Source: Wenjunlia vitaminophila DSM 41686
GTDB lineage: Bacteria > Actinomycetota > Actinomycetes > Streptomycetales > Streptomycetaceae
Direction: 5' to 3'
Length of the DNA stretch: 64,000 nt
Assembly (NCBI RefSeq): GCF_000380165.1
Contig: NZ_KB904735.1
Span: 116,721 to 180,720, forward strand
The translations under genes and the position numbers were made by a program. Shown piece by piece: positions 19,454-21,740 of this stretch (the first letter of the stretch is position 1; the number at the start of each line of letters is the position of its first letter). Under the pieces are notes generated by a model, which was not told where the DNA came from, did no database searches, and saw nothing but the letters and a program-made list of their open reading frames with translations.

Positions 19454-19756
19454 ATGGACTTGACCCCGCGCGAGCAGGAGCTCTTACTCGTCCACGTCGC
19501 GGCCGACGTCGCGCTGCGCCGCCGGGCCAGGGGCCTGCGGCTCAACCACCCGGAAGCGGTCGCCGTGCTCACCGCCCACCTGCTGGAGGGGGTCAGGGAC
19601 GGCCGGACCGCCGCGGAGCTCGCGGAGTCCGGCCGCGCCGTGCTCACCCGTGACGACGTGCTGGAGGGAGTGCCCGAGATGATCCCCGAGGTGCGGGTGG
19701 AGGCCACCTTCCCCGACGGCGCCCACCTGGTCACCGTCCACCGGCCGATCGGCTGA
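19454..19756 (+). CDS. ureA: urease gamma subunit
   Basis: 100 aa, [12 protein letters not shown]...[29 protein letters not shown], near-identical in pattern to Klebsiella UreA. Confidence 0.85.
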
Positions 19757-19761
19757 CCGCC

Positions 19762-20058
19762 GTGGTCCCCGGGGAGGTCCTGGCCGGCACCGAGCCCGTG
19801 CCGCTGAACGCCGGGCGCGAGCCCGTGCGGCTCACCGTGCGCAACACCGCGCGGCATCCCGTGCTGGTCGGTTCCCACCATCCCTTCGCCGAGGTCAACG
19901 CCGAGCTGGAGTTCGACCGCGGCTCCGCGCGGGGGCTGCGGTTGCACGTCCCGGCCGGCACCACCGTCCGGTTCGACCCCGGGGTCGAGCTCGAGGTGGA
20001 CCTGGTGCCCTTCGGCGGGTTACGGCCACCGCGGGGGACCGGGGGTGTGTCCTCATGA
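19762..20058 (+). CDS. ureB: urease beta subunit
   Basis: GTG start 6 nt after the ureA stop. LNAGRE...VGSHHPFAEVNAELEFDR...VPAGTTVRFDPG matches UreB. Confidence 0.85.
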   Translation: MVPGEVLAGTEPVPLNAGREPVRLTVRNTARHPVLVGSHHPFAEVNAELEFDRGSARGLRLHVPAGTTVRFDPGVELEVDLVPFGGLRPPRGTGGVSS

Positions 20059-21740
20059 CCGGGATCGAGCGGCGGAACTACACCGAGCTGTACGGCCCCA
20101 CCGTGGGCGACCGGATCAGGCTCGCCGACACCGACCTGCTGATCCAGGTCGAGCGGGACCTGTGCGGCGGCCCGGGCAGGGCGGGTGACGAGGCGCTCCT
20201 CGGGCCGGGCGGCACGCTCCGCGAGCCGCTGGGCCAGGCCAGGGTGACCCGCGCGGAGGGCGCGCCGGACACCGTGATCACCGGGGTCGTGGTCCTGGAC
20301 CACTGGGGCGTGGTCAAGGCCGACGTCGGCATCCGCAACGGCCGGATCGCCGCCCTGGCCAAGGCGGGCAACCCCGACACCATGGACCGGGTCCACCCCG
20401 GGCTGGTGATCGGCCCGGAGACGGAAGTGATCAGCGGCAACGGGCAGATCCTCACCGCGGGAGCCATCGACACCGGGACCCACCTGGTCCACCCCCGGGT
20501 CGTGGGGGACGCCCTGGCCGCGGGGGTCACCACACTCGTCGGTGGCGGTACCGGTCCCGCCGACGGCACCGTGACCACCGGCGTCACCCCCGGCCCCTGG
20601 CACCTGGCCGGGATGCTCCAGGCGATGGAGGCGTTCCCGGTCAACATCGCCCTGCTCGGCCTGGGGAGCACCACGAGCGCCCAGTCGCTGCACACCCAGG
20701 TGCGGTCCGGGGCGGCCGGGTTCCGGGTCCACCCCGTCAGGGGGGTCACCCCCGCCGCCGTCGACGCCTGTCTGACCGTCTGCGACGCCACCGGCGTCCC
20801 CCTGCTGCTGCGCCCCGATCCGCGGAACGAGGCCGGGTCCCTCAGGGACACCGCGGACGCGGTCGCGGGGCGTGCCGTCCACGCCACCCTGGCCCCCGGT
20901 GTCGGTCACCCCCCGTTCCTCGACGCGCTCGTCCTGGCCGCCGAGCCCTGGGTGCTGCCCGGCTCGACCCTGGCCGCACGGCCGGGCTCCGGTCGTGCCG
21001 CGGGGGCGGGCCCGTCCCCGGCGCCGGAGGGCGGCCCCGCCGCGCCGGCGAAGGAGGCGCTGCTGGCGGCCGAGCGGGTGCTGCACGACCTGGGAGCGTT
21101 GTCGATCCTCTCCTCGGGCGGTGGCGTCCGGGGCCGGATCGGCGAACTGGTGCCGCGCGCCTGGCGGACCGCACACCTGATGCGGCGCCGGCGCGGAAGG
21201 CTGACCGGCGACGTCCGGGCCGACAACCACCGGGCCCGTCGCTACATCGCCAAGTACACCATCAACCCGGCGGTCGCCCACGGGCTCGACCGGGAGATCG
21301 GCTCGGTGCGCACCGGCAAGGTCGCCGACCTGGTGCTGTGGGACCCCGCCTGGTTCGGCGTCAGGCCCCGACTGGTCATCAAGGGCGGGCAGATCGTCCA
21401 CGGCGGGCGGGACGCCCCCGGCCCCGGGGCGTCCACCACGCCGTCCGTCCCGTTCCACCCCGGGTTCGGCGCCGTGGGACGCGCCCCGGCAGACAACGCG
21501 TTGACGTTCGTCGCCCAGCCCGCCCTCGATGCCGGGCTCTCCGAGCGCCTCGGTCTCGGCAGGTCCTGCACCGTTCTCTGCGACACCCGCCGACGCGGCA
21601 AGGAGAACATGGCGGAGAACGCGGCCCTGCCCCGGATCGAGGTCCCCGCGGACGGCGGTGCCGTCCGGGTCGACGGCGAGGACGTGGAACCGGAGCCCCC
21701 CGGGGAACTCCCCATGTCGCGGCGGTACTTCCTGTTCTGA
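20055..21740 (+). CDS. ureC: urease alpha-subunit homologue with a degenerate (non-catalytic) active site
   Basis: Full-length amidohydrolase scaffold (N-terminus YGPTVGDRIRLADTDL, VGGGTGPADGT, RGRIGEL, RYIAKYTINPA, C-terminal RYFLF). The HxH Ni site reads DTGTHLVHP, the carbamyl-Lys block GLKxHEDWG reads GFRVHPVRG, ALHSD reads LLRPD, HTFHTEGAGGGH reads HATLAPGVGH, CHHLD is replaced by a Pro/Gly-rich insert, and SSDSQA reads SSGGGV. Overlaps the ureB stop by 4 nt. Confidence 0.8.
   Translation: MTGIERRNYTELYGPTVGDRIRLADTDLLIQVERDLCGGPGRAGDEALLGPGGTLREPLGQARVTRAEGAPDTVITGVVVLDHWGVVKADVGIRNGRIAALAKAGNPDTMDRVHPGLVIGPETEVISGNGQILTAGAIDTGTHLVHPRVVGDALAAGVTTLVGGGTGPADGTVTTGVTPGPWHLAGMLQAMEAFPVNIALLGLGSTTSAQSLHTQVRSGAAGFRVHPVRGVTPAAVDACLTVCDATGVPLLLRPDPRNEAGSLRDTADAVAGRAVHATLAPGVGHPPFLDALVLAAEPWVLPGSTLAARPGSGRAAGAGPSPAPEGGPAAPAKEALLAAERVLHDLGALSILSSGGGVRGRIGELVPRAWRTAHLMRRRRGRLTGDVRADNHRARRYIAKYTINPAVAHGLDREIGSVRTGKVADLVLWDPAWFGVRPRLVIKGGQIVHGGRDAPGPGASTTPSVPFHPGFGAVGRAPADNALTFVAQPALDAGLSERLGLGRSCTVLCDTRRRGKENMAENAALPRIEVPADGGAVRVDGEDVEPEPPGELPMSRRYFLF

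Follow-up and report, generated by a model that had tools for sequence, protein, structure and literature searches.

In Wenjunlia vitaminophila DSM 41686, a ureABC gene set on contig NZ_KB904735.1 (positions 116,721 to 180,720; this 64-kb stretch is the window below, and positions are counted from its first nucleotide) encodes a urease alpha subunit, UreC, with a full-length urease fold and a destroyed nickel centre. In this protein 11 of the 13 active-site residues were changed, including five of the six nickel ligands, whereas all 119 closest relatives kept all 13. Gene order marks this locus as the positional orthologue of the Streptomycetaceae canonical ureABCFGD operon rather than an extra urease-like cluster. 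These findings suggested that UreA, UreB and UreC would form a non-catalytic urease-like complex, translated from the transcript of the upstream tetR gene and retained under relaxed selection for a scaffold role independent of nickel and ureolysis, a reading that we, on balance, slightly favor.

Loss of the UreC active site

UreC was recognized as a full-length urease alpha subunit by the Pfam domains PF00449 (Urease_alpha, E 1e-44) and PF01979 (Amidohydro_1, E 3e-29) and by an end-to-end HMMER alignment of its residues 1–561 with residues 1–567 of Klebsiella aerogenes UreC. The open reading frame (ORF) positions and the 561-amino-acid (aa) length given by an initial annotation, made from the sequence alone, were exact. 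The window matched contig LLZU01000010.1 of W. vitaminophila (formerly Streptomyces vitaminophilus) ATCC 31673. The protein was a 100% match to one annotated as "urease subunit alpha" in this species, and it was present in two assemblies.

Residues were placed in a 121-sequence MAFFT alignment with K. aerogenes UreC numbering, and compared across the 119 closest UreC relatives. The initial annotation had read Gly for His134, Arg for Lys217, Arg for His246 and Gly for Asp360, and this motif placement was upheld by both HMMER and the alignment. Its further statement that every metal and catalytic residue had been replaced went too far, as two active-site residues were kept, His136 (His143 in W. 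vitaminophila) and His219 (His226). His136 alone remained of the six nickel ligands that a urease alpha subunit requires, and His219 alone remained of the catalytic and substrate set (His219, Asp221, Cys319, His320, Arg336, Ala363 and Met364). A two-codon deletion had removed the equivalent of His272, the equivalents of Cys319, His320 and Arg336 were gone, and Asp360, Ala363 and Met364 were replaced by Gly355, Val and Arg. Active-site residues were changed more often than other deeply invariant columns (11/13 against 73/238; Fisher P = 1.5e-4).

The catalytic block of the mobile flap had been described as replaced by a Pro/Gly/Ala-rich insert. Its Cys and His residues and Arg336 were indeed lost, but there was no insert; the flap region had lost 12 codons to two in-frame deletions, of 9 and 27 nucleotides (nt), with heavy substitution besides. 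A compensated frameshift as the source of the Pro/Gly/Ala-rich flap was ruled out, as neither an all-frame tblastn of canonical UreC nor a DNA alignment showed similarity in an alternative frame. A second loop, aa 441–470, was fully diverged, with the conserved MGDANASIPTPQPV motif replaced; the ratio of nonsynonymous to synonymous divergence (dN/dS, or ω) by the NG86 method was 4.35 for this segment, which was chosen post hoc.

UreC fell under both NCBIfam equivalog cut-offs (NF009685, 698.9 against 907 bits; TIGR01792, 535.7 against 680 bits) and stood above the subfamily model NF009686 only (593 against 354 bits). The partner subunits UreA and UreB were encoded upstream of UreC, as in a urease operon. 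They had been called intact and canonical, of which the first part stood and the second did not: UreB scored below the equivalog NF009682 (106.9 against 129 bits) and above the domain model TIGR00192 only (93.2 against 90.3), and columns invariant in five canonical orthologues had changed in both subunits (11/79 in UreA, 23/67 in UreB). UreA was 82% identical to UreA of Streptomyces capparidis, scored above its equivalog cut-off and was about as conserved as working neighbors, whereas the divergence of UreB reached the level of the fast-evolving neighbors tetR and the ABC-2 gene. Sequence comparison indicates that both subunits evolve faster here than in relatives.

AlphaFold modeled UreC with a predicted local distance difference test score (pLDDT) of 87 and a predicted template modeling score (pTM) of 0.91 from an alignment of 77 diverse sequences; with only 28 close relatives in the alignment, the pLDDT was 34. 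The score of the better model dropped below 50 only at aa 308–328, 357–360 and 454–462, which are among the most diverged stretches. In Foldseek comparisons the model matched solved urease alpha chains with a template modeling (TM) score of 0.90–0.93, and the next structural matches after ureases were CRMPs, with a TM score of about 0.5.

Origin of the locus

The W. vitaminophila locus shared the order bioB-bioF ... ureABC ... ctaG-pfk with five canonical loci. The full order bioB-bioF ... ureA-ureB-ureC-ureF-ureG-ureD ... ctaG-pfk was found in these five syntenic relatives: W. tyrosinilytica, a metagenomic contig, S. capparidis, S. purpureus and Actinacidiphila paucisporea. In S. capparidis, to which synonymous distances in the flanking genes were the smallest, the order was clpP, antitoxin, M28 peptidase, ABC-2, tetR, ureABC, ureFGD, PARG-like gene, orf52, ctaG and pfk, and the left flank in W. 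vitaminophila matched it gene for gene through ureABC. All five relatives carried linked ureD, ureF and ureG. At the W. vitaminophila locus neither these genes nor remnants of them were found, by tblastn in the 64-kb window or by Pfam within 10 kb on either side, which agreed with the initial remark that no accessory genes flank ureABC. The PARG-like gene of the S. capparidis locus was likewise absent from the window without remnant.

In the place of ureFGD stood a three-gene module of an exporter gene, a peptide precursor gene and a third gene. The C-terminus of the precursor, CRVQGEGCTGAVGCCPGLVCVSTNGFSGFC, had the spacing C-x6-C-x5-CC-x4-C-x10-C, as in the inhibitor cystine knot, and matched Pfam Toxin_12, a spider ion-channel toxin family, weakly (E 0.0046, 18 bits, below the 21-bit cut-off). 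Relatives of the module occurred at seven loci in Streptomyces, Kitasatospora, Embleya and Streptantibioticus, with 70–82% identity. The exporter was 78–82% identical in six of these loci, the 442-aa protein 70–76% identical in all seven, and the peptide was kept in all seven; six loci had all three genes, and the seventh had the peptide and 442-aa genes only. No urease genes lay within 8 kb of the module at any of the seven. As the module occurs elsewhere without urease genes, it was taken to be an independent unit that landed at the ure locus. From its gene content, it would be a bacterial system built around a secreted, knottin-like peptide.

The junction upstream of ureA had also been rebuilt. 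An alignment of this junction showed that the tetR-ureA spacer, about 120 bp in S. capparidis, was cleanly deleted in W. vitaminophila, so that the tetR stop codon TGA was followed by ACGCC (19449–19453) and then by the ureA ATG, joining the ure genes to the tetR reading unit. The canonical GGAGGTG Shine-Dalgarno site before ureA had gone with the spacer. The overlap of the ureB stop with the ureC start (ATGA) was kept, together with a Shine-Dalgarno-like GGGGGTG. Because ureA has lost its Shine-Dalgarno site along with the native spacer, we can only infer that ureABC is expressed. The promoter of tetR-ureABC would be a sigma-70-like match upstream of tetR, TTGTCA-17-TATGAT, the only such match in 18500–22300, where 0.1 was expected in shuffles.

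Decay or retention of ureABC

Terminal-branch ω values came from NG86 distances in a three-point design in which S. capparidis served as the sister. On the W. vitaminophila branch, ω was 0.79 for ureC (95% confidence interval, CI, 0.63–0.99), 0.76 for ureB (0.41–1.45) and 0.48 for ureA (0.20–1.15), and it ranged from 0.10 to 0.51 in six flanking genes. On the S. capparidis branch, ureA, ureB and ureC gave 0.07–0.47, with 0.20 for the canonical ureC. The branch dN of ureC was 0.273 in W. vitaminophila against 0.036 in S. capparidis, a difference of about 7.6-fold. The NG86 and LWL85 methods placed the branch ω at 0.70–0.79, and a maximum likelihood (ML) codon-frequency method gave saturated dS values of 4–11. 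The counting-method values are upper bounds because dS is underestimated at a third-position G+C content (GC3) of about 95%, and weight was therefore put on relative and model-free comparisons.

Changes in UreC were not spread evenly, as they would be in a neutral pseudogene. Of 287 columns invariant in the 119 canonical UreC proteins, 89 had changed, and these changes were clustered (0–16 per 20 columns, permutation P<5e-5; 89 runs against 124 expected). Invariant columns were 31% changed, against 51–70% of variable columns. After inspection of the data, we delimited "hot" parts of UreC (aa 209–345 and 441–470) from the "cold" rest. Apparent dS was 0.355 in the hot and 0.344 in the cold parts, while dN differed 2.5-fold, and the NG86 ω was 1.38 (0.98–2.16) in the hot against 0.57 (CI 0.43–0.74) in the cold parts, both upper bounds. 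Because apparent dS was equal in the two, the clustering was not due to mutation rate, and recombination or local hypermutation was ruled out as the cause of the hot regions.

A model-free benchmark was provided by identity to S. capparidis at codon positions 1 and 2. This identity was 0.44 in the flap remnant, 0.52 in aa 441–470 and 0.62 in the hot set overall, against 0.80 in the cold set and 0.83 in both the N-terminal domain and aa 346–440 of UreC. Among neighboring genes it was 0.82 for clpP, 0.84 for bioF, 0.76 for tetR and 0.71 for the ABC-2 gene. In the seven spacers that could be aligned with S. capparidis, identity was 58.5%, with a shuffled baseline of 51%, and all seven differed in length, by 18–174 bp. 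By this yardstick the flap and two further loops were as diverged as unconstrained DNA, and the UreC scaffold was on a par with working neighbor genes.

Frameshifts, which the initial annotation had named as the sign of neutral decay, were not found in ureABC, nor were premature stops or truncations. Every indel across the 2.3 kb was in frame, and ureC carried at least four, all multiples of three. When the observed ureC substitutions were placed randomly on the inferred ancestor, a mean of 2.3 stops arose, with a probability of no stop of 0.09; the test is weak because GC-rich codons seldom mutate to stops. The dN/dS check proposed by the same annotation gave a lowered ω in the cold scaffold and a high whole-gene branch value.

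GC3 in ureC was 0.945, equal to that of neighboring genes (0.935–0.967). Among UreC replacements, Gly, Ala, Arg and Pro (GARP) were gained 71 times and lost 33 times, whereas Phe, Tyr, Met, Ile, Asn and Lys were gained 8 times and lost 37 times, and AT-to-GC changes dominated codon positions 1 and 2. Gly and Arg at former ligand sites and the Pro/Gly/Ala-rich flap were accordingly ascribed to GC-driven drift and not to design.

On these comparisons, a uniformly neutral pseudogene is rejected for ureC. The catalytic loops have been free of constraint over essentially all of the branch, and the scaffold has been conserved about as tightly as ordinary neighbor genes. The contrast of randomized spacers with a conserved scaffold, the clustering and the in-frame indels together indicated that any fully neutral phase was short relative to the branch.

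Other ligand-poor UreC proteins and known systems

In a search of 5.8 billion proteins, the W. vitaminophila UreC was a singleton, the representative of its own 50%-identity cluster, and its next relative was about 60% identical and canonical. As far as these searches indicate, the dead ureABC of Wenjunlia is a single-species event. Among the best 150 matches, 26 of 57 full-length 50%-cluster representatives kept at most three of the six nickel ligands, although a few of the 26 may be partial or chimeric alignments. The flap Cys-His was lost in all of them, Asp360 had become Gly in 13/26, and His219, the site most often retained, was kept in 12/26. Their hosts included Serratia marcescens, S. 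entomophila, Pseudomonas chlororaphis, Chromobacterium haemolyticum, Nguyenibacter vanlangensis, Thiorhodovibrio frisius and Martelella alba, several of which are insect-associated, and the proteins were annotated as "urease subunit alpha" or "amidohydrolase family protein." Two genomic contexts were read; a ureB-like gene adjoined both, a ureA-like gene was present in one, and there were no accessory genes. Some of the proteins were fusions, either UreC-UreB or UreB-UreC, the latter in Martelella.

These proteins resembled the W. vitaminophila UreC in having a full-length alpha scaffold, at most three of six ligands and no flap Cys-His, but they were only 32–49% identical to it and formed separate deep branches in a neighbor-joining tree, in which the W. 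vitaminophila UreC lay on a long branch among Streptomycetaceae ureases. The separate branches indicated that the W. vitaminophila protein is an independent, recent instance. Alignment and tree together indicate that many independent ligand-less UreC lineages exist in other bacteria, and the fact that several span different genera suggests long retention there. A profile search from ten ligand-poor UreC proteins did not delimit a family, as the urease scaffold dominates the profile and canonical ureases swamped the results. Full-text literature searches found no description of bacterial urease homologues without a metal site.

The canonical ureABCFGD operons of S. capparidis and W. tyrosinilytica (with UreC of the NF009685/PRK13206 type) shared with the W. 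vitaminophila locus its position, flanks, subunit order, ureB/ureC overlap and fold, and canonical Streptomycetaceae UreC proteins were 57–62% identical to that of W. vitaminophila. The latter differed in having no ureFGD, no spacer and no ureA Shine-Dalgarno site, in the 11 of 13 residues lost, and in the 12 codons missing from the flap. Brucella ure-2, a silent second urease operon (PMC2492869), is alike in contributing no measurable urease activity, a likeness drawn from the description of activity only.

By analogy, the nearest characterized counterparts of the dead UreC are CRMP/DPYSL and PyrC'. CRMP/DPYSL proteins are dead dihydropyrimidinases, and PyrC' is the inactive dihydroorotase-like subunit of Pseudomonas aspartate transcarbamoylase. 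Both kept the amidohydrolase triosephosphate isomerase (TIM) barrel, lost metal ligands and are used in binding or assembly, as proposed here for UreC; they belong to another subfamily, have demonstrated functions and occur in many species, whereas the W. vitaminophila UreC is a singleton. Pseudoenzymes of the amidohydrolase superfamily are thus already known, and what would be new is a urease-derived pseudoenzyme caught at its ancestral locus.

Interpretation

In the mechanism that we propose, an ancestral Streptomycetaceae ureABC would have turned, at its original site, into a catalytically dead urease-like complex, with ureFGD replaced by the module of exporter, knottin-like peptide and 442-aa genes. 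UreA, UreB and UreC would still be translated from the tetR promoter, ureA being coupled to tetR and ureC to ureB, and they may still fold and assemble like (UreABC)3. Relaxed purifying selection would keep the scaffold for a role without nickel or urea hydrolysis. This role could lie in binding or structure, or in a further ureolysis-independent property such as those documented for ureases. The old active site would have been filled by Gly, Ala, Arg and Pro, mostly through GC-biased drift at released sites. The initial suggestion of a pseudoenzyme or moonlighting scaffold was the best supported of the readings, by the conserved scaffold, the in-frame indels and the confident fold, but it was not proven, given the singleton protein and the deleted promoter and Shine-Dalgarno site. 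Of the marks of a pseudoenzyme, we found the loss of essential residues, an intact ORF and fold, and purifying selection on the scaffold (in one lineage and in regions set post hoc); a second species or lineage sharing the dead state was not found, with no relative above about 60% identity among 5.8 billion proteins.

Several points weigh against retention for a role. The dead state was seen in one species only, the native spacer and promoter region were deleted along with the ureA Shine-Dalgarno site, the branch ω values of ureABC were high (0.48–0.79 against 0.07–0.47 on the S. capparidis branch), and the hot and cold regions were set post hoc. The absence of stop codons was only weakly informative (P of about 0.09 under neutral placement), the replacement residues were GARP-biased, as drift rather than design would give, and the AlphaFold alignment was dominated by canonical ureases, so that the predicted fold was partly borrowed.

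Much of this would also fit a late-stage relic, which we regard as possible though doubtful. The operon would have become useless after the loss of ureFGD, its scaffold would have been held for a while, and it would now be an intact-looking pseudogene heading for disruption or deletion; what preserved the scaffold could have been residual function, or selection against faulty products, misfolded or truncated, of the tetR-driven transcript. The restriction to one species, the acceleration of all three genes, the missing native spacer and Shine-Dalgarno site, the GC-driven replacements with their low-complexity flap, and an absence of stop codons that was not significant alone all speak for such a relic. 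However, unconstrained DNA at the distance between W. vitaminophila and S. capparidis was randomized and full of length changes, whereas the UreC scaffold was 80–83% identical at codon positions 1 and 2, like working neighbors. The changes at invariant columns were strongly clustered, with each indel in frame, and bacteria usually delete useless DNA, yet the neighboring replacement spared ureABC precisely.

A neofunctionalized enzyme, with a pocket formed by His143, His226 and the gained Arg224, Arg253 and Arg359 and with new catalysis or binding without nickel or a carbamylated Lys, seemed distinctly unlikely to us. The hot region evolved at or above the apparent neutral rate, most of all in aa 441–470, the active-site residues were replaced far more often than other invariant residues, of which 31% had changed, and His219 was also the site most often retained in other dead UreC proteins. 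Against this, the ω values are upper bounds (dS being underestimated at such GC3 and saturated by ML), and the regions were picked after inspection of the data. The segments that had been replaced were Pro/Gly/Ala-rich, GARP-biased and of low predicted order, which looks like released constraint, and no second species showed the new residues conserved.

That the locus encodes a working urease, whether through an unusual metal site or through activation by accessory genes at another place in the genome, is highly improbable: several clusters are common in Streptomyces, including ure(AB)C without accessory genes as well as ure(AB)CFGD (PMC5489568), but this protein has lost Asp221, Arg336 and the flap Cys-His, as well as the carbamylated Lys and four of the five other metal ligands, and the single K. 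aerogenes variants H134A, K217A/C/E, D221A and H320N were published as active-site knock-downs. Representatives of the Streptomyces-type ure(AB)C also lacked adjacent maturation genes, yet they kept all six ligands (HHKHDHH..RDGM). The best 120 UreG homologues included one from W. tyrosinilytica but none from W. vitaminophila, which is weak evidence, and the taxonomy preprint gave no urease phenotype. The initial conclusion that this is not a working urease was strongly supported, as five of six ligands, the carbamylated Lys, the flap Cys-His, Asp221 and the ureFGD of the locus are all gone.

A wider proposal goes beyond retention in W. vitaminophila. Dead ureases might be a widespread, undescribed class of non-catalytic complexes, of which the Wenjunlia locus would show one born in place, the scaffold being kept for antifungal, entomotoxic or membrane-active effects; we consider this speculative and rather unlikely. 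The dead ureABC of Wenjunlia directly adjoins the imported module of exporter and knottin-like cysteine-rich peptide, and dead ureABC-like operons occur elsewhere in insect-associated genera (Serratia entomophila, Pseudomonas chlororaphis and Chromobacterium). Antifungal, entomotoxic and membrane-active effects have been shown experimentally for apo- and inhibited ureases. The ureolysis-independent activities of ureases, apo-ureases included, have been reviewed (PMC6077230).

Other features of the window

The G+C content of the 64-kb window was about 73%, and the features of the ure region are collected in Table 1. The ABC-F type gene was not part of the three-gene module at other loci. ABC-F proteins often give ribosome-protection antibiotic resistance. 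The interval 15211–16295, which lies between the biotin genes and the ure locus, carried genes for a ClpP-family protease (-) and a Phd/YefM-family antitoxin (+). S. capparidis, S. purpureus, Actinacidiphila and the metagenomic contig had the pair in the same place, and no toxin partner was noticed. A 1041-aa antisense ORF at 19731–22856 (-), spanning ureB, ureC and the next gene, was rejected as an artefact of 75% G+C with few stops, without homology support. Many further long shadow ORFs were present in the ORF list of the window.

Table 1. Features of the W. vitaminophila ure region, with residues of K. aerogenes UreC given as equivalents
Feature	Position	Strand	Remarks
M28 peptidase gene	16302-17357	-	Left synteny anchor, common to S. 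capparidis and W. tyrosinilytica; Pfam
ABC-2 type membrane protein gene	17649-18740	-	Divergent from tetR; Pfam ABC2_membrane_3, E 1.7e-11
Sigma-70-like promoter match TTGTCA-17-TATGAT	18795-18823	+	Upstream of tetR; consensus match, putative function
TetR-family regulator gene	18831-19448	+	Stop codon 5 nt before ureA ATG; Pfam TetR_N, E 1.6e-15
ureA, urease gamma subunit	19454-19756	+	Intact ORF, 100 aa; Pfam Urease_gamma, E 4e-41
ureB, urease beta subunit	19762-20058	+	Intact ORF, 98 aa, strongly diverged; Pfam Urease_beta, E 1e-29
ureC-derived gene	20055-21740	+	561 aa; full-length urease alpha fold, destroyed nickel centre
Gly141-Thr142-His143	20475-20483	+	His134-Ile-His136; first nickel ligand lost, second kept
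Arg224-Val-His226-Pro-Val228	20724-20738	+	Lys217-Ile-His219-Glu-Asp221; carbamylated Lys and Asp221 lost, His219 kept
Arg253	20811-20813	+	Nickel ligand His246
Mobile flap remnant, aa 303-338	20961-21068	+	Pro/Gly/Ala-rich; Cys319, His320 and Arg336 gone
Gly355-Gly-Gly-Val358-Arg359	21117-21131	+	Asp360-Ser-Gln-Ala363-Met364; nickel ligand Asp360 lost
Second fully diverged loop, aa 441-470	21375-21464	+	Conserved motif replaced
ABC exporter-type gene	22054-23883	+	609 aa; first gene of module in place of ureFGD
Knottin-like peptide precursor	24064-24402	+	112 aa; C-terminal six-cysteine peptide
Third module gene	24406-25734	+	442 aa; no Pfam match
ABC-F type protein gene, two ABC domains	25802-27433	-	Between module and orf52; absent from S. 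capparidis ure locus
orf52 and ctaG	27712-28972	-	Right synteny anchor, common to canonical ure loci

Implications

Urease is a textbook nickel enzyme, and annotation pipelines give the label "urease subunit alpha" to anything with a urease fold; the W. vitaminophila locus indicates that this label can mislead even for a full-length, well-folded protein. Genome-based prediction of ureolysis should therefore check the ligands and the presence of ureDFG. The locus offers an unusually clean natural experiment, as syntenic relatives reveal the ancestral state of each gene, and it makes visible the dismantling of a multi-subunit metalloenzyme, with accessory genes replaced, the promoter lost, catalytic loops randomized and the scaffold held. 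If the scaffold is truly retained, there would be a nickel-independent role for bacterial urease particles, which would tie W. vitaminophila to the ureolysis-independent activities of ureases and also to about two dozen other, apparently undescribed, dead UreC lineages.

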